From Erythrobacter sp. (GTDB lineage Bacteria; Pseudomonadota; Alphaproteobacteria; Sphingomonadales; Sphingomonadaceae), in the NCBI RefSeq assembly GCF_024305245.1, contig NZ_JAMWYX010000004.1, positions 192,616-256,615 of the forward strand: a stretch of DNA of 64,000 nt. The letters are read 5' to 3'. The first letter of the stretch is position 1; every line of letters starts with the position of its first letter. Below the pieces are notes generated by a model. The model worked only from the letters and a program-made list of their open reading frames with translations. It searched no databases and was not told the origin of the DNA. This document shows, one piece after another, positions 50,357-59,144 of this stretch. Both the position numbers and the translations under genes were made by a program.

Positions 50357-50377
50357 TCCGTTCCGTTAACCATGTCA

Positions 50378-50415
50378 GGGGGCGGGGGGCCGGTTGCGCC
50401 CCTCCGCCCCCCTTC
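50378..50415 (+). terminator. GC-rich hairpin, probable terminator of TBDR 2
   Basis: GGGGGCGGGGGGC / GCCCCTCCGCCCCC with a short TT tail. Confidence 0.55.
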
Positions 50416-50428
50416 GTGTAAACCCCGT

Positions 50429-50503
50429 ATCCATGGTTTATGGATCTGGTTAGGAATTCCTAAACGTTACTACCGTAGCCCTACGTGAATTAACGGGGGC
50501 TAC
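50429..50503. promoter_or_regulatory. Palindrome cluster upstream of the beta-barrel operon
   Basis: ATCCAT-N5-ATGGAT (50429-50445), perfect TTAGGAATTCCTAA (50450-50463), and GTAGCCC/GGGCTAC (50475-50503) covering the RBS. Confidence 0.5.
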
Positions 50504-50507
50504 TGCC

Positions 50508-51422
50508 ATGAAACACACCTTCCGAGCGCTCTGCGTCCTGCTGGTCGCAGCGTCCGTTTCGCTCGGCGCGCGCCCGGCGACGGCGCAGGAGACCGGCTGG
50601 AGGCTGGAACCCGACGCGCGGATCGAAGTGCAGACGGTAAGCGCCCAGACCACCACCCGCGACGATGATCTGGTGATCGATGGCGAGGCGGTATCCGTGC
50701 GCGCTCAGGTCGGCGCAGCACTGGAAAAGCGCGGCGTGCGGCTGCGGGTCGAGGCCGACCGTATCGAAGTGATCCGGCTGGGCGAAGACCGGCGCGATTT
50801 CGCCCGCGACCGCTTTACCGCGACGCTCCAGACCGATATCGAGAAAGACTGGGAGCTTCAGCTTCAAGCCCGCCACTACGACGATGCGATATCGGTCGAG
50901 GCGATCGACACCGACGAATGGCAAGGTTCTGCGCGGGTGACGTGGGAGCACGATCGCGCGCACCGGGTGCGCGTGCAGGGCACCTGGCGGGAACGCGAAT
51001 ATCGTAATGGTGCGGCTGCCGAGACCACTGGTGAGGGGCCGCGGGTCGATGCGCAATATCGCCGCCGGTTCGGGCGTTATCACTATCTCGCCTTCGATCT
51101 GCGCGCGGAATCGATCCGTTCGGACGAAGCGCGGCGCGGCTATGAACGCGAGTCCGCCGGCGTCGTCTATACCCGCCCGATCACCCCGGACCTGCGCGTG
51201 CGGCCCGCGATCGAGGTGATCCGCACCCGGTTCGACGGGCGGCTCACCGACGATGGCGAGCGTCGCCGCGACAGCCTGATCGTGCCCGAGGTCGAACTGT
51301 TGTGGTGGCCGGGCCAGTGGCGCGTCGAAGCCGAAGCCAAATACATCTTTTCCGGCAGCAACGAACCCGTGCGTGAGCGCGAAGGTTACCGACTGACGCT
51401 TTCGGTCGGATATGCGTTCTAG
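50508..51422 (+). CDS. Outer-membrane beta-barrel protein of unknown function
   Basis: Signal peptide (ARPATA|Q), alternating amphipathic strands throughout, terminal RLTLSVGYAF beta-signal. Confidence 0.8.
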   Translation: MKHTFRALCVLLVAASVSLGARPATAQETGWRLEPDARIEVQTVSAQTTTRDDDLVIDGEAVSVRAQVGAALEKRGVRLRVEADRIEVIRLGEDRRDFARDRFTATLQTDIEKDWELQLQARHYDDAISVEAIDTDEWQGSARVTWEHDRAHRVRVQGTWREREYRNGAAAETTGEGPRVDAQYRRRFGRYHYLAFDLRAESIRSDEARRGYERESAGVVYTRPITPDLRVRPAIEVIRTRFDGRLTDDGERRRDSLIVPEVELLWWPGQWRVEAEAKYIFSGSNEPVREREGYRLTLSVGYAF

Positions 51423-52461
51423 GCTGATTTCGACCTTCCGGCAGTTCTGGGAAAGAGCGACGCCGCAAATCCGGCGCCCGATCTATATCGGGTTGGTCGT
51501 CGGCCTGTGCATTGCTGCGCTGGTCGCGCTGGGCTTTGCCAACACGCAGGCTTTCTTCGCGCTGCCATCGTCATTCAACGGGGTCTCCACTTCGCAGGCG
51601 GTGTGGGGGCTGAAGCCGTCCAACCTGCTGATGGTGCTGCCGTTGGGGGCGTTTCTGGTGGTGCTGGCGCGCAGTTTCGTGGGCCTCAAGGCGTTCGGCC
51701 TGTTCACGCCGATGCTGATCGCGCTCGCATTCCTGCAGATCGGCCCGATCATGGGACCCGTGGTGCTGGTTTCATCGGTGCTGACGGGAATGCTGGTTAC
51801 GCCCACCCTGCTCAAACTGCGGATGACGCGCGTGGGGTTTTTGGGCGTGTTGATCTCGCTGATCGTGCTGGTGCTGGTTGCCTTGCAGATGATCCTCGAT
51901 ACCAAGCTTCAGGTGGATGCCTTTCCGGTGATCGTCTGCGGGCTATGCGTCGAACGCTGGTGGAAGCAATGGGGCAAGGATGGCGCAAAGCCGGCGGCGA
52001 AGATGGCGCTGAACACCTTCGTACTGGCGGTAGTGATCGAGTTTGTGATGGTCAGCGAATTCGCGCTGGCGCTGATCAATACCTCTCCGCTGCTGATGCC
52101 CGCGGCAACCGGGATCGCGATCGCCATTCTTGGCCGTTATCGCGGATTGCGGCTTTCAGAAATCGCCCGGTTCGCGCCGATCTGGCTTGAACGGCGGCGG
52201 AAGGCACGACAATCGGCCGATCCCGACCAGTTCGAGCTCGATCTGGAACCCTGCGCACGCGCTGAAGCGACCGTGCGCGCGCCGCCGCTTGATGGTATCT
52301 GGGTGATCCAATCGCCCGCGGACCTCACCCCCGGCAGGAGCAGGCGGGTTCCGCAACCGATCAGACCCAACAAGGAGGCCCAGTTCGAGCCTCGCCTTGG
52401 CGCAAATGGCCGACCGATGATCCACAATGCCTGGATCATCCGGTCGGCAGAGGACGTTTGA
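51412..52461 (+). CDS. 7TM protein of the 7TM_transglut type, lacking the inactive transglutaminase domain
   Basis: LPLGAFLVVLARSFVGLKAFGLFTPMLIALAF, FPVIV...VERW, LGRYRGLRLSEIARF. Overlaps the upstream gene by 11 nt. Confidence 0.85.
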   Translation: MRSRLISTFRQFWERATPQIRRPIYIGLVVGLCIAALVALGFANTQAFFALPSSFNGVSTSQAVWGLKPSNLLMVLPLGAFLVVLARSFVGLKAFGLFTPMLIALAFLQIGPIMGPVVLVSSVLTGMLVTPTLLKLRMTRVGFLGVLISLIVLVLVALQMILDTKLQVDAFPVIVCGLCVERWWKQWGKDGAKPAAKMALNTFVLAVVIEFVMVSEFALALINTSPLLMPAATGIAIAILGRYRGLRLSEIARFAPIWLERRRKARQSADPDQFELDLEPCARAEATVRAPPLDGIWVIQSPADLTPGRSRRVPQPIRPNKEAQFEPRLGANGRPMIHNAWIIRSAEDV

Positions 52462-52462
52462 G

Positions 52463-53398
52463 ATGTTCGGGTTGCTGCGCCGAAGATCGGCCAATTACGA
52501 TGCGTTGAGCAAGCTGCGCCCGCCGCAGTTTGACCGGATGGACGAGATCCTCGGGATCAACATGCGCAATGCCCTGATCGCAAAATACAACCCGCGCAGC
52601 GCGATCGAGCGCGCGCGTGACAAGGTGGCGGCCAAGGTCGCGCTGGAAGCGGCAGGGATTGCCTGCACGGGCACGGTGGCGGTGATCGATGACCATCAGA
52701 AACTTGGGCAGTTCAAACCCTTGCGCGATATGCCCGATGCCTGGGCGATCAAGCCTGCGCGCGGGTCGCAGGGCGACGGTATCCTGCTTGCCGTCCGGCG
52801 CGAAGGTAATATCTGGTACAAGGGATCAGGCGCGCCGTTGACCGAAGAAGCGGTGATGCATCACATCCAGAAGGTGGTCGATGGCGGCTTTTCCGGCGAT
52901 TCCGCGGCCGAGGACGCGGCGCTGATCGAACCGCTGATCATCGCCGATCCGGCGCTCGCCAGCATTGTGCCCGAAGGCCTGCCCGATCTGCGCGTCATCA
53001 GCCTGCATTACACGCCGCTGATGGCGATGGTGCGGCTGCCCACCAACGAATCCGACGGCAAGGCCAACCTCCACCAGCGGGCGATCGGCGCAGGAATATC
53101 GCTGGAAACCGGGCGCATCACCCGCGCGGTGGTCAAGGGCGAGGTCATCACGCACCACCCCGATACCGGCGTGCCGCTGATCGGGTTCGCAATTCCGGGT
53201 TGGGAGCGCGTGCTCGAACTCGCATCGAAATGCGGGCCTGCGGTTGGGCTGGGTTACTGCGGGGCGGACATCGTGCTCGACGTCAATGATGGTCCGCTGG
53301 TGATCGAAGTCAACGCGCACCCCGGGATCGAAATCCAGAACATCAATCAGGAAGGCCTGAAGGCGCGGATCGCGGCGACGGGTGAGGATTTCCGGTAG
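52463..53398 (+). CDS. Alpha-L-glutamate-ligase-like ATP-grasp protein
   Basis: ILGINMRN, RDK, IKPARGSQGDGIL, PDLRV, AMVRLPT..SDGKANLHQ, HPDTG, DIVLD...GPLVIEVNAHPG. Confidence 0.9.
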   Translation: MFGLLRRRSANYDALSKLRPPQFDRMDEILGINMRNALIAKYNPRSAIERARDKVAAKVALEAAGIACTGTVAVIDDHQKLGQFKPLRDMPDAWAIKPARGSQGDGILLAVRREGNIWYKGSGAPLTEEAVMHHIQKVVDGGFSGDSAAEDAALIEPLIIADPALASIVPEGLPDLRVISLHYTPLMAMVRLPTNESDGKANLHQRAIGAGISLETGRITRAVVKGEVITHHPDTGVPLIGFAIPGWERVLELASKCGPAVGLGYCGADIVLDVNDGPLVIEVNAHPGIEIQNINQEGLKARIAATGEDFR

Positions 53399-54691: not shown

Positions 54692-56440
54692 ATGGCTCGA
54701 TTGCGCCTCACGGTATGGTTCTGGCTGGCTGCGGCGCTGTTCGCGCTGGGCCTTGCCGCGCCTGCTTCAGCCGATGACCATCATCTTGCGATTTTTCAGG
54801 CTGATTGTCATGCTGCATCGGGGGCCGACCGACCTGCCGGGGCGATGATCGATTCGGCTGCATGGAACTGCAGCGGTGCCGATTGGCAGGCCACCGCACC
54901 GGTGGCGTGGCTGCGTTTCGATGCGGAAAATTGGCACGGTTCGCGCGTGCCGCTCCAGTTCTTCAGCCGCACCTCGCGCCACGAGAAGATCACGCTCTAC
55001 GCGCTCGATAACGACGGCACCCTGCGCTCGCGTAGCTTCGCCGAAAGCGATGGCCGCCCGTTTGCCGGTGGGCCGGTTTTCCGCCTGCCCCTGCCATTGG
55101 TGACAGCCGAAACCGAAGCTGTGCTGGTACGGATCGAAAGCCCGCATTCGATCCCCTTGCTGACCGAAGCGGGGCTGGTGCGCCATGTTGAGGATGCGGG
55201 CCGATCGGTCGAGGAGATGATGCTGCTGGCGCTGGTGCTGGGAATGCTGGTGCTGCCGCTGCTGTTCGATGTCAGCTTCTACCTCGTCCTGCGCGAACGG
55301 TTCGTGCTGTTTCATGCGGCCATGGTCGTGGCGATGATGGGTTACGTGCTGTTTGCTGGCGGTGTGATTTCGGCGGTGGTGAGCCTGCCGGTCGTGTTCC
55401 TGGCCGTAATGGCGCCCCTGTCCTGGGCTGTGGGATGCGGGGCGGCGCTGTTGTTCCTCAGCGAATTTCTCGAACGCGGTGCGTTATCGCGTACGATGCG
55501 CCGGATCACCTTCTGGACGGGGTGCTGGACGATAGCGGTGCCCGGGTTTTTCTCGTTGCAGCTGCACGCCACGCAGGGCGTCGATGATGCCGCCTATTTC
55601 ATCACCATCACCCCGGCCGCCGTCGTGGTGTCGGCCGCGCTGGTGCATGCGATCCTGCGCGGCAGTCGTTCGGCCAAGTTTGTCGCAGTGGCGTGGTTCC
55701 CGCTGATCCTGACCTCGATCGAGCGGCTGGGTCGCGGCCTGGGTGTCTATGCCGGGCCGGCGAGCCTCGACATGATGATGTTCGTCGCAACCGGGATCGA
55801 GGTGGTGGTGATCAGCCTTGCGATTGCCGACCGCTTCCTCGCGATCCGCCACGAACGCGACGCCGCGCTGACCGAGGCGCGAATGCTGGAGCAGATTTCG
55901 ACCCGCGATTCGCTCACCGGCCTGATGAACCGCCGCGCGATCGAGGCGCGCTTCGATGAGTTGCTGGCGCAGGGCTTCGATACGTTCACGCTGGTCGATC
56001 TCGACCGGTTCAAGGCGATCAACGATCTTCACGGCCATCAGGTCGGCGATGCCGCGCTGATTGCCTGCGCCAATGCCATTCGTGCTGCCGGAGACCGGGA
56101 TTCGATCGCGGTCAGGCTCGGCGGTGAGGAATTCGTGGTGCTGCTGCGCGGCGAACGCACGCTCGAACGGGCCGAGGCGATGCGGCAGGCGATCCCGATG
56201 CGCATCGCAAAGGACGTTCCGGGGCTGGAACTGCCGGTGACCGCGAGCATGGGGGTGATCATGGTCTCGCGAACGGCGCACCAGACCATGCAGTTCGCCG
56301 ATTTCTACGCCCGCGCCGATGCGCTGATGTACGAGGCCAAGGCTGCGGGCCGCAACCGGCTCGCCTATGAGCGCCTGACGGTGTTCAGCGAGCCGCCGGC
56401 CGCGCGCCGACGCGCAGCGAATGACGAGGAAGCTGCCTAG
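54692..56440 (+). CDS. 7TMR-DISM-type sensor diguanylate cyclase
   Basis: Signal peptide, periplasmic beta domain (WLRF), about 7 TM helices, RDSLTGLMNRR, DLDRFKAIND, RLGGEEF, KAAGRN. Confidence 0.9.
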   Translation: MARLRLTVWFWLAAALFALGLAAPASADDHHLAIFQADCHAASGADRPAGAMIDSAAWNCSGADWQATAPVAWLRFDAENWHGSRVPLQFFSRTSRHEKITLYALDNDGTLRSRSFAESDGRPFAGGPVFRLPLPLVTAETEAVLVRIESPHSIPLLTEAGLVRHVEDAGRSVEEMMLLALVLGMLVLPLLFDVSFYLVLRERFVLFHAAMVVAMMGYVLFAGGVISAVVSLPVVFLAVMAPLSWAVGCGAALLFLSEFLERGALSRTMRRITFWTGCWTIAVPGFFSLQLHATQGVDDAAYFITITPAAVVVSAALVHAILRGSRSAKFVAVAWFPLILTSIERLGRGLGVYAGPASLDMMMFVATGIEVVVISLAIADRFLAIRHERDAALTEARMLEQISTRDSLTGLMNRRAIEARFDELLAQGFDTFTLVDLDRFKAINDLHGHQVGDAALIACANAIRAAGDRDSIAVRLGGEEFVVLLRGERTLERAEAMRQAIPMRIAKDVPGLELPVTASMGVIMVSRTAHQTMQFADFYARADALMYEAKAAGRNRLAYERLTVFSEPPAARRRAANDEEAA

Positions 56441-56838
56441 TCGCCGCGAAACGGCGCGAGCACTTCGGGCCGCACCCGCGCCAGCCTCCCCGATGCGCGA
56501 TCCAGCATCGCCCATGTCGTCGTCGCGCTGACGAGGCGTTTGCCGGAAGCATCGGTGAATTCCACCCGGCGGAGCGATTTGGCGCCCTGCGCCGGGCCTT
56601 CGATCCATGTGGTGGCGGTGACGCTTTCGCCTTCGAATACGTTCCCGCGATAATCGATCTCGTGCCGCACCACGACCCAGAAGAACGCCGCGCGATCTTC
56701 CGGGCGGGCAACGGCATCCCAGTGGGCGGTAGCCATGTCCTGAATCCACTGCACCCACACGGTGTTGTTGACGTGGCCGAGCTCGTCGATGTGCGAAGGT
56801 TCGGCCACGAAGGTGCGGGCGTAGCGGTTCGCGGTCAT
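56437..56838 (-). CDS. 4HBT-like acyl-CoA thioesterase
   Basis: HIDELGHVNNTVW, RHEIDY. ATGA overlap with ptrB. Confidence 0.9.
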   Translation of the reverse strand: MTANRYARTFVAEPSHIDELGHVNNTVWVQWIQDMATAHWDAVARPEDRAAFFWVVVRHEIDYRGNVFEGESVTATTWIEGPAQGAKSLRRVEFTDASGKRLVSATTTWAMLDRASGRLARVRPEVLAPFRGD

Positions 56839-59081
56839 TCCCCCTTGCTCTTGGGCGCCATCCCCATCTGCCACAGGATGAAGGCATATTCCTCCGCCGT
56901 TTCCTTCAGGCTGTTCCACCGGCCCGATTGCCCGCCGTGGCCTGCGCCCATGTTGGTCTTCATCAGCAGCAGGTTGTCGTCGGTCTTCACTTCGCGCAGC
57001 TTGGCGACCCACTTCGCCGGTTCCCAATAGGTCACGCGCGGATCGTTGAGGCCTGCCGTCACCAGCATCGGCGGATAATCCCGGGCCACCACCTGATCAT
57101 AGGGCGAATAGGACAGGATATAGGCAAAGGCCGCCTTGTCGGTGATCGGGTTGCCCCATTCCTGCCATTCGCCCGGCGTCAGCGGCAGTTTCTCGTTGAG
57201 CATCGTGCCCAGCACATCGACGAACGGCACATGGGCGACAATCGCGCCGTATTGCGACGGGTCCTGATTGATGATCGCCCCCATCAACTCGCCGCCGGCC
57301 GAACCGCCGCTGGCGGTCACCATGCCCTCGGCAGTGTAGCCCTGCGCGATCAAGCCGCGCCCGGCATCGACAAAATCGTTGAAGGTGTTGGTGCGTTCGA
57401 ACAGCTTGCCTTGCAGATACCAGCGCCGCCCCAGATCGTCCCCACCGCGAATATGCGCGATGGCATAGGCAAAGCCGCGATCGACGAGGCTGAGGCGCGA
57501 GGTCGAAAAGCCCGGCGGGATGGCATAGCCATAGGCACCGTAAGCATAAAGATGCAGCGGCCCCGGCCCTTCGACCCCGGCCTTCTTGAGGATTTCGGCG
57601 CGGTCTTTGCGCATCACGATGCTGACCGGCACCATCGTCCCGTCGCGCGCCTGCACGCTCACCCGCTCGGTAGTGTAGAGATCGGCGTCGTAACCGCTGG
57701 GAATTTCCTGCGTCTTCAGGGTTTCCAGCTTGGCCGTAGCCACGTCGTAATCATAGACCGTGCCGGGCGTCACCATACTCTGGTACGACAGCCGCAGCTT
57801 TTTCATGTCATATTCGGGATTGTTCGAAAGGCCCGCCGTGTAGCTGGCTTCGGGGAAGGTGATCGGCGTGATCCGGGCCGGATCGGAATATTGGCGCAGC
57901 TGGATCTGGTCGAGCCCGTTCAACCGCCCTTCGGTGACGAAGAAATCCTTGAACAGGTCGAAATCGGTCAGATAGAATTCGTCCGATCCCGCGATCACTG
58001 TCTGCCAGTCGTCCGGCGTTTCCAGCGATGCCTTGGCGAGGCGGAAGTTGATGTGATCATCATTGGTCCACACCCACAATTCATCGTCGCGCACATCGAC
58101 CGCATATTCGACGCCCTTCTGGCGCGGCTTCACGAGGATCGGGCGCGCGGTGGGGTTGGCGGCGGGGACAAGGCGCACTTCGCTGGTCTCGTTGTCGCCG
58201 GTGGCGATGATCAGCCAGTCTTCCTGCGCACTCAGCCCGGTGCCCACGCTGAAGCTCTGATCCTGTTCCTCGTAAAGCGTCACGTCCTGACCGGTCGGCG
58301 TGCCGATCATGTGCAGCTTGGCTTCCAGCGTGCGCCATTCCTCGGTTGCAGGGCTATAGACCAGCGCGGTGTCATTCGCGACCCACACCAGCCCGCCGCG
58401 CAGGTTCTCCAGCACATCGGGCAGATGCTCGCCGGTCTGCAAATCCTTGATCCGCGCGGTATAGCGCTCCGACCCGCTGGTGTCGGTCGAATAGGCCAGA
58501 TAGCGCCCGTTCTGGCTGACCGAAGCTGCGCCGAGGCTGAAATATTCCTGCCCCTCGGCAAGTGCGTTCTCGTCGATCAGCAATTGCGTCTCGCCGCCCG
58601 CGGCAGGCTTGCGATAATGCTTGCGGTACTGCGCGCCTTCCTCGAACTCGCTCCAGTAGATCCAGTCGCCGTCCTTCTGCGGAACGGTACTGTCGTCTTC
58701 CTTGATGCGCGCGCGCATTTCGGTGAACAGCGCCTCGGTCAGCGGGGCCTGGGCTGCCATGTTCGCCTCGAAATAGGCGTTCTCGGCCTTCACGTGATCG
58801 AGCACGTTCTCGTCATCCACCACCGGATAGGACTTGTCATACAGCCAGTCATACGGGTCTTCGATGGTGATCCCGTGGTGGGAGTAGGAATGCGGACGCT
58901 TCTCCGCGACCGGCGGCTTGATGTCGCCGGTAGACTTGGGGGCAGGCGTTTGGGCAGCGGCGGCGGCAGATGTGGTCACGCGGGCGAAATCCTCACTATT
59001 GGTCGCCAACACGGCGGCAGGGGCAAAGGTGGTGGCGGTGAGCGCGGTGGCAAGAGCGATGGCGCTGATGCGGTGGGTCAT
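56835..59081 (-). CDS. ptrB: Secreted S9A oligopeptidase B
   Basis: DPYDWL, YGAYG, HIRGG, GGSAGG (Ser), LNDPRV (Asp), AGHGG (His). Signal peptide. Confidence 0.93.
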   Translation of the reverse strand: MTHRISAIALATALTATTFAPAAVLATNSEDFARVTTSAAAAAQTPAPKSTGDIKPPVAEKRPHSYSHHGITIEDPYDWLYDKSYPVVDDENVLDHVKAENAYFEANMAAQAPLTEALFTEMRARIKEDDSTVPQKDGDWIYWSEFEEGAQYRKHYRKPAAGGETQLLIDENALAEGQEYFSLGAASVSQNGRYLAYSTDTSGSERYTARIKDLQTGEHLPDVLENLRGGLVWVANDTALVYSPATEEWRTLEAKLHMIGTPTGQDVTLYEEQDQSFSVGTGLSAQEDWLIIATGDNETSEVRLVPAANPTARPILVKPRQKGVEYAVDVRDDELWVWTNDDHINFRLAKASLETPDDWQTVIAGSDEFYLTDFDLFKDFFVTEGRLNGLDQIQLRQYSDPARITPITFPEASYTAGLSNNPEYDMKKLRLSYQSMVTPGTVYDYDVATAKLETLKTQEIPSGYDADLYTTERVSVQARDGTMVPVSIVMRKDRAEILKKAGVEGPGPLHLYAYGAYGYAIPPGFSTSRLSLVDRGFAYAIAHIRGGDDLGRRWYLQGKLFERTNTFNDFVDAGRGLIAQGYTAEGMVTASGGSAGGELMGAIINQDPSQYGAIVAHVPFVDVLGTMLNEKLPLTPGEWQEWGNPITDKAAFAYILSYSPYDQVVARDYPPMLVTAGLNDPRVTYWEPAKWVAKLREVKTDDNLLLMKTNMGAGHGGQSGRWNSLKETAEEYAFILWQMGMAPKSKGE

Positions 59082-59089
59082 GCGAAGGC

Positions 59090-59144
59090 GATCCATTGTT
59101 GGGCCATTCTTTGGCCATTCTCGGGCCATTCTCGGGCTGTTCAC
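59090..59144. repeat. Five imperfect 11-bp direct repeats between divergent ptrB and aminopeptidase P
   Basis: GATCCATTGTT / GGGCCATTCTT / TGGCCATTCTC / GGGCCATTCTC / GGGCTGTTCAC. Confidence 0.75.

Follow-up and report, generated by a model that had tools for sequence, protein, structure and literature searches.

What does a bacterium make, and where does it send it, when the genes for an outer-membrane barrel, an inner-membrane protein, and an amide-forming ligase are joined end to end? This question is raised by three consecutive open reading frames (ORF1, ORF2, and ORF3) in a 64,000-nucleotide (nt) stretch of Erythrobacter sp. DNA (contig NZ_JAMWYX010000004.1, positions 192,616 to 256,615), which was analysed as a whole and is called the window below. 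The three genes, here termed the trio, encode an outer-membrane β-barrel, a polytopic protein with a seven-transmembrane (7TM) core, and an ATP-grasp ligase. The trio was found to recur as an ordered unit in deeply diverged Sphingomonadales, and barrels of the same family were found beside genes resembling those of poly-γ-glutamate synthases. We tentatively favor a model in which the ligase would build an acidic, glutamate-rich product, the membrane protein would pass it outward, and the barrel would let it leave the cell; we rate this model as plausible, though somewhat short of probable.

Organization of the trio

The original prediction for this locus, made from the DNA sequence alone, had described three coupled genes, with an 11-nt overlap followed by a 1-nt gap, that encode a barrel, a 7TM protein, and an ATP-grasp protein. 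The ORF coordinates, the family assignments, and the barrel model all confirmed this description (Table 1). Because the stop codon of ORF1 overlaps the start of ORF2, the overlap suggests translational coupling of the two genes, and a similar overlap was present in related loci. At the second junction, the TGA stop codon of ORF2 is followed by a single G and then by the ATG of ORF3. The longest possible reading of ORF3 begins at 52427, and gene calls on identical contigs start at 52463; public contigs with the identical sequence carry gene calls for the same three products. The trio is probably a separate transcription unit, whose boundary we infer from the 151-nt gap with a G+C-rich hairpin that follows the gene for a TonB-dependent receptor. 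A promoter and terminator scan of the region 5' of ORF1 yielded no consensus promoter or terminator.

Characteristics of the three proteins

ORF3 matched the family PF14397 (ATPgrasp_ST) with an E value of 3e-63 and 214 bits (cut-off 31.4). RimK-type motifs were retained around KPxxGxQGxG and GxDIxL...EVNAxPG, and the sole solved relatives of the protein were RimK poly-α-glutamate ligases, which were matched around the nucleotide- and Mg-binding motifs. The scores against the RimK-family profiles fell far below their thresholds (TIGR00768, 48 bits vs 143; PRK10446, 27 bits vs 331).

ORF2 matched PF14402 (7TM_transglut) over model positions 58-247 of 248 (E = 8e-27; 94.7 bits, cut-off 25), and this core corresponded to residues 72-257. 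The NCBIfam profile for RloB (NF052267) matched ORF2 in its C-terminal half only, at 67 bits (cut-off 900; profile positions 315-503). An N-terminal helix (residues 24-42) is followed by a loop of about 28 residues before the next helix and then by the helical core. No transglutaminase domain was found in ORF2, and these approximately 28 residues stand at the position where RloB carries its transglutaminase-like domain. Past the core comes a tail of some 90 residues, rich in Arg and Lys, with the conserved motif HNAWIIRSAEDV at its end. The consensus HNAW(I/V)I(R/K)xxEDV closes ORF2 (window 52360-52461) and was kept across the Erythrobacter/Porphyrobacter/Altererythrobacter clade, and the tail before it varies in length (proteins of 345-420 amino acids). 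A tail of this type is absent from the second clade and from Sphingomicrobium, both of which are described below. At Aurantiacibacter-type loci (L067-L089; L numbers denote the loci recovered in our scans), the 7TM reading frame stays open, out of phase, over approximately 170-300 nt of the conserved ATP-grasp coding region, which implies that either the two genes overlap at length or the ligase starts later.

Neither Pfam nor NCBIfam yielded a match to ORF1, even with the threshold relaxed to E ≤ 10, and its relatives matched PF10082 and PF13505 weakly. An exhaustive search of 1.84 billion proteins recovered a family of 72 representatives at E ≤ 1e-3. An AlphaFold2 model built on an alignment of 43 homologs consisted of a signal-peptide helix and 14 β-strands (predicted local distance difference test score, pLDDT, 83.4; predicted template-modelling score, pTM, 0.72). 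ORF1 shows the general characteristics of outer-membrane barrels: a Sec signal peptide, an even number of strands, alternating polarity, and a C-terminal aromatic residue. Ala26, the last residue of the signal peptide, was invariant among homologs, and the C-terminus of ORF1 (...SVGYAF) agrees with the family ending GY[AR]F. A Foldseek search with the model against the PDB returned outer-membrane barrels only, with a best TM-score of about 0.5; the best matches were 14-strand OmpG, TamA, and porin barrels. A comparison with AlgE, BcsC, or Slam-type exporters had been suggested; this search showed no specific likeness to them, gave the generic barrel fold only, and placed AlgE at rank 47. The label DUF481 (PF04338), under which some homologs are named in UniRef, is likewise unsupported, since ORF1 had no PF04338 match at E ≤ 10; a relative reached only E = 0.07, below the cut-off.

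Arginine is abundant in ORF1 (46 of 304 residues), and the residues conserved throughout the family are mostly arginines (R153, R161, R163, R185, R187, R214, R245, R253, and R295), together with Y165, S284, and an SND motif. The conserved arginines are predicted from the strand pattern to face the lumen.

Conservation of the trio as a unit

A genome scan with the 7TM alignment, using one genome per species, identified 95 relatives, of which 80 loci, all from Erythrobacteraceae, were kept. The ATP-grasp gene lay immediately 3' of the 7TM gene in all 80, and the barrel gene lay immediately 5' of it on the same strand in 78 (78 of the 79 assessable loci). The two exceptions were L062, where the contig begins inside the 7TM gene, and L036, which is taken up below. 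The flanks of these loci differed, comprising FtsK with or without a TonB receptor, PstS, GGDEF, or none of these.

A second scan, of metagenome contigs with four distant barrels (31-35% identical to ORF1), identified 27 further loci (L096-L122). The barrel, 7TM, and ATP-grasp genes followed one another in this order in 25 of the 26 assessable ones; the exception (L102) has a barrel gene without the 7TM and ligase genes. Compared with the window, the proteins of this second clade were 44-49% (ligase), 36-49% (7TM), and 33-38% (barrel) identical, and all flanks were different. A typical second-clade trio (e.g. L105:5821-8621) has a Porin_4 gene upstream and a short 7TM protein of roughly 250-280 amino acids. 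As this porin clusters at 90% identity with those of Erythrobacter and Porphyrobacter, we conclude that the second clade is a further copy of the trio, deeply diverged, that Erythrobacter-like genomes carry. An overlapping trio was also present in Sphingomicrobium aquimarinum, a member of another family (Sphingomicrobiaceae). There (L123:3162-7850), a response regulator and a hybrid histidine kinase (HisKA, HATPase, receiver, and Hpt domains) are encoded immediately 5' of the trio.

In total, 107 of the 109 assessable loci, which come from three deeply diverged clades of Sphingomonadales, carried all three genes intact and in the same order, an arrangement far beyond chance, and the trio occupied three or more different chromosomal sites. 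The identities of barrel and ligase co-varied (Spearman 0.94), which indicates that the three genes diverged together. Judged by these comparisons, the three genes have evidently been passed on together, through deep divergence and at several chromosomal sites. The neighborhood survey thereby upheld the prediction that the barrel is conserved with the 7TM and ATP-grasp genes, whether entered through the 7TM gene, through the distant barrels, or in Sphingomicrobium.

Link of the barrel family to PgsB/PgsC-like genes

Paralogous barrels with about 32% identity to ORF1 were found in Pontixanthobacter, Parerythrobacter, Erythrobacter sp. HKB08, and metagenome contigs. They adjoin, in convergent orientation, a conserved island of Erythrobacteraceae whose proteins are listed in Table 1. 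Judged by its domains, the island looks like an undescribed giant poly-γ-glutamate-synthase-like system of a diderm bacterium. It lies at L008:9231-20939 and also in L004, L005, L009, L091, and L094, with a gene for a response regulator-Hpt protein and the paralogous barrel gene at one side. The regulator gene overlaps the barrel gene there, and the regulators beside the Sphingomicrobium trio echo it.

The island itself is absent from the window. A connection with the trio was found at L095:1-6381, where the trio follows directly after GSDH, GAF, and Gly-zipper genes. In other genomes, these same genes stand ahead of the PgsB/PgsC-like island (64% and 72% identity for GSDH and GAF), and these common neighbors indicate that the trio and the island can fill the same chromosomal slot.

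Through its gene neighborhoods, this family of barrels is associated with two polyglutamate-type ligase machineries that are unrelated to each other. The family could, more generally, provide diderms with a way out across the outer membrane for poly-amino-acid (polyglutamate-type) polymers, having been recruited separately by ATP-grasp/RloB-like and by giant PgsB/PgsC-like pairs, with cassettes interchangeable at one site; we consider this broader idea possible but rather doubtful. If it were true, RloBC-type systems would generally deliver a glutamate-rich product to the periplasm. A literature search returned the RloABC study discussed below as the sole relevant paper, with no description of the trio, nor of an outer-membrane exporter for polyglutamate-type polymers. 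The occurrence of the same barrel family beside the PgsB/PgsC-like island makes the idea of such an exporter directly testable.

Table 1. Features of the trio in the window and proteins encoded in the PgsB/PgsC-like island of related genomes.
Feature	Window position	Strand	Description
Intergenic region 5' of ORF1	50357-50507	+	151 nt; G+C-rich hairpin after the TonB-dependent receptor gene
ORF1	50508-51422	+	304 amino acids; outer-membrane β-barrel, 14 predicted strands
ORF1 signal peptide	50508-50585	+	Residues 1-26 (...ARPATA, followed by QE); helix 2-20 in the model
ORF1 stop/ORF2 start overlap	51412-51422	+	11 nt, ATGCGTTCTAG
ORF2	51412-52461	+	349 amino acids; polytopic inner-membrane protein, RloB-like 7TM_transglut core
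ORF2 end with Shine-Dalgarno sequence for ORF3	52446-52462	+	GAGGA, in the last codons of ORF2
ORF3	52463-53398	+	311 amino acids; cytoplasmic ATP-grasp ligase (ATPgrasp_ST, α-L-glutamate-ligase-like, RloC-like)
Island protein, ~1380 amino acids			PgsB-like domain (TIGR04012, 5.6e-51)
Island protein, ~866 amino acids			Two PgsC/CapC units (PF14102, 1e-41; TIGR04011, 9e-17)
Island proteins, ~287 and ~257 amino acids			No family match
Island regulators			Response regulator and a large protein with marginal histidine-kinase similarity only

Proposed function and its alternatives

The nearest characterized relatives of ORF2 and ORF3 belong to the rloABC system of Pseudomonas aeruginosa. RloA is a secreted, periplasmic retropepsin-like peptidase that cleaves polyglutamate in vitro, RloB combines an inactive transglutaminase domain with a 7TM domain, and RloC is an ATP-grasp protein (Lormand et al. 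2025, mBio, PMC12239564). The hypo-osmotic lethality of a triple rloA1-3 mutant is rescued by deletion of rloB or rloC, and rlo mutants are altered in cell shape and β-lactam sensitivity (PMC12239564). Since RloA is periplasmic and the rloB and rloC deletions rescue its loss, the RloBC-dependent product should act outside the cytoplasm and must be removed. These findings partly overtake the statement in the original prediction that the product of such systems is unknown, and the product itself was left open in that study (PMC12239564).

On this basis, we propose the following pathway. ORF3, as an ATP-grasp enzyme of the RimK/RloC lineage, would form amide bonds with ATP in the cytoplasm, most likely yielding an acidic oligomer or polymer rich in glutamate, which would be free or carrier-bound. 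The RloB-like ORF2 would be the membrane partner of ORF3 and would hand the product to the periplasmic side, where ORF1, with its arginine-rich lumen, could let the anionic product through the outer membrane. Export by the barrel would then stand in place of the periplasmic removal by RloA in Pseudomonas. Polymer synthesis and export had already been proposed from the sequence; the proposal has now gained an independent link to polyglutamate, namely the paralogous barrels by the PgsB/PgsC-like island and the common slot. The data above show the gene coupling, the folds and families, the unit-like conservation of the trio, and the tie of the barrel family to PgsB/PgsC-like genes; we still infer the product with its glutamate substrate, the role of ORF2 as translocator, and the direction in which the barrel transports.

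Several observations weigh against this pathway. A product of the trio has not been seen. The score of ORF3 against TIGR02291 (266.5 bits) lies under the curated cut-off (314.2), and its substrate may therefore differ. The AlphaFold2 model of ORF2 was poor (pLDDT 60), no transporter fold was shown for this protein, and a profile search against PDB sequences found no match. The role of the 7TM protein had been likened to that of PgsC/CapC, but homology between them could not be demonstrated either: hhalign with shallow profiles gave a non-significant probability of <1%, and in Smith-Waterman shuffle tests z ranged inconsistently from -0.2 to 4.9 over 12 pairs, where unrelated membrane proteins gave -1.2 to 2.0. 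As for ORF1, the lumen and lipid sides were assigned by simple strand alternation, not from coordinates, and the predicted lumen holds 26 Arg and Lys vs 22 Asp and Glu residues; with such near-equal numbers, ORF1 could be a salt-bridged, narrow, or closed barrel. The trio contains no periplasmic adaptor, TPR scaffold, or periplasmic barrel domain, for which reason the minimal trans-envelope secretion machine of the original prediction is not indicated as a continuous machine.

The distribution of the trio also tempers the proposal. All trio loci fall within one order, Sphingomonadales, so part of the conservation reflects shared ancestry. In L036, a metagenome-assembled genome of Erythrobacter, the barrel gene has collapsed and the 7TM and ligase genes are intact; at L036:5850-6010, an internal deletion of about 750 nt leaves the signal peptide and the last strand (...REREGYRLTVSLGYAF), which may reflect a genuine loss or an error of the assembly. 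Furthermore, a GT2 glycosyltransferase gene is added in five second-clade loci; although not a conserved component, it hints at a sugar-linked product in some lineages. It encodes 662 amino acids at L105:8534-10522, and it was also found in L112, L113, L115, and L118.

Other functions of the trio were considered. The ligase might attach amino acids to some acceptor in the envelope, such as a polysaccharide, lipid-linked sugar, peptidoglycan precursor, or outer-membrane component; the 7TM protein would present or flip this acceptor, with the barrel as site, receiver, or assembly partner of the modified molecule. The name of PF14397 reflects an association with sugar-transfer genes, the GT2 gene, of the processive type, stands directly 3' of the ligase gene where it occurs, and the shape and β-lactam phenotypes of Pseudomonas rlo mutants would suit an envelope target. 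We nevertheless regard such modification as unlikely: neither the window nor the majority of loci has the GT2 gene, no conserved acceptor-synthesis genes adjoin the trio, and the island beside the paralogous barrels points to free poly-amino-acid chemistry. Less likely still is a signal-controlled modification inside the cell, in which the ligase would glutamylate a cytoplasmic protein, as RimK does with S6, while the 7TM protein served as sensor or regulator and the barrel admitted an external cue. The periplasmic location of RloA and the rescue of the triple mutant speak against it; a dedicated barrel translationally coupled to a 7TM gene would also be an unusual route for sensing a signal, and regulator genes are not conserved beside the trio, even though RimK is the only solved relative of ORF3, two-component or phosphorelay genes adjoin both the Sphingomicrobium trio and the paralogous barrel elsewhere, and a gene for a GGDEF protein lies nearby in the window.

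Sequence cannot reveal the direction of transport, and the small barrels KdgM and NanC, which have basic tracks, take up acidic oligosaccharides. ORF1 might by analogy be a porin specific to acidic solutes or peptides, which the 7TM protein would import and the ligase would conjugate or trap. Uptake appears improbable, given that this ATP-grasp lineage uses abundant cytoplasmic amino acids, that PF14402 has no known importer role, that a paralogous barrel pairs with a polymer synthase-like island, and that the action of periplasmic RloA on an RloBC-dependent product implies an outward flow. There is, finally, very little to commend the view that the barrel is functionally unrelated and that its adjacency is synteny inherited within one order. 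It could account for the confinement of all loci to Sphingomonadales, for the metagenome-assembled genome without most of the barrel gene, and for the second-clade barrel of L102 that lacks the other two genes, but it would leave unexplained why the stop/start codon overlap was kept across clades and the gene order at 33-38% barrel and 44-49% ligase identity despite wholly different flanks, and at three or more chromosomal sites. We retain export of an acidic, glutamate-rich product as the tentative function of the trio.

Genes and sequences around the trio

In the window, a PstS-like gene lies 3' of ORF3 in convergent orientation, and a 7TMR-DISM/GGDEF diguanylate cyclase is encoded two genes 3' of the trio (54692-56440). 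The latter gene was found near the trio in only part of the Erythrobacter/Porphyrobacter loci. A Peptidase_S9 protein of the oligopeptidase B/prolyl oligopeptidase type is encoded 3.4 kb downstream of the trio on the - strand (56835-59144), with an N-terminus that, judged by eye, resembles a signal peptide. Its gene immediately adjoins the trio in some relatives (L083, L088, and L070), and a distant S9 gene (29% identity) adjoins the trio of Sphingomicrobium (L123). This peptidase could be a partner of the trio or merely reflect old synteny. A gene for a BLUF blue-light sensor was observed at 2275-2706 on the - strand.

An uncharacterized MobB/DUF1611-like P-loop protein recurred beside the barrels of two clades (L093:1888-4868, and upstream of the barrel in L097, L099, L101-L104, and L106-L108). 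In L093 it was accompanied by an ABC exporter, and in L102 its gene adjoined the barrel gene that stands without its two usual partners. For this P-loop protein, neither a solved nor a named relative was found. The barrel locus L090 yielded no information on its neighborhood. The closest relatives of the window were Erythrobacter and Porphyrobacter, and the identical sequence was present in metagenome runs from algae. The sequence was found in DNA metagenome runs only, and in no RNA runs.

Comparison with known systems

AlgE, KdgM, and NanC are monomeric barrels with conserved basic lumen residues that pass anionic chains. They are functional analogues of ORF1 only, with no sequence or specific structural relationship to it: ORF1 has 14 strands, whereas AlgE has 18 and KdgM and NanC have 12, and the trio has no AlgK-like or TPR partner. 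It also differs from the synthase-dependent secretion systems of the alginate, cellulose, and poly-N-acetylglucosamine type, as the window operon contains neither a TPR gene nor a GT2 gene and the 14-strand ORF1 is not a 16-18-strand barrel.

With RimK/RimB, which act on ribosomal protein S6, the trio shares the ATP-grasp fold and the ATP and Mg motifs kept in ORF3, RimK being the closest solved structure. In contrast to RimK, the ligase of the trio is encoded with a membrane protein and an outer-membrane protein, and RimB is missing. The PgsBCA(E)/CapBCA systems likewise pair an amide ligase with a polytopic membrane partner of small helices, and barrels of the ORF1 family flank the PgsB/PgsC-like island, whose slot can hold the trio. 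The ligases are of different kinds, ATP-grasp in the trio and Mur-ligase-like in PgsB, the trio has no PgsA, and none of its proteins matched a PgsB or PgsC profile. We class the trio as neither a RimK nor a PgsBCA system.

The closest comparison is with RloABC. In both systems, a PF14397/TIGR02291-like ATP-grasp gene stands beside a gene for a PF14402 polytopic membrane protein, and both appear to act on the cell envelope. In Pseudomonas, the RloBC-type pair of ligase and 7TM protein affects osmotic tolerance, biofilm formation, and antibiotic sensitivity. The trio differs in that it has no gene for an RloA retropepsin-like peptidase in or near the operon, and ORF2 does not carry the N-terminal periplasmic inactive transglutaminase domain of RloB. 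Both had been noted as missing in the original prediction, in agreement with our search, which found no PF05618 (RloA/RimB-type) peptidase and no transglutaminase in the operon, its annotated flank, or 20 further small and mid-size proteins of the window. Conversely, the trio possesses a translationally coupled outer-membrane barrel gene upstream; its ligase scores under the TIGR02291 cut-off, and its hosts are Sphingomonadales, whereas RloABC is found in Gammaproteobacteria.

In the Sphingomonadales lineage, the periplasmic peptidase and the transglutaminase domain would have been lost and a dedicated outer-membrane barrel gained. Such loss and gain make the trio a simpler system for identifying the RloBC-type product, which would be expected outside the cell, and the trio is also suited to asking whether the 7TM protein is a translocator. 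Several features that define RloABC are lacking, and the trio is a reduced, outer-membrane-linked relative of RloBC.

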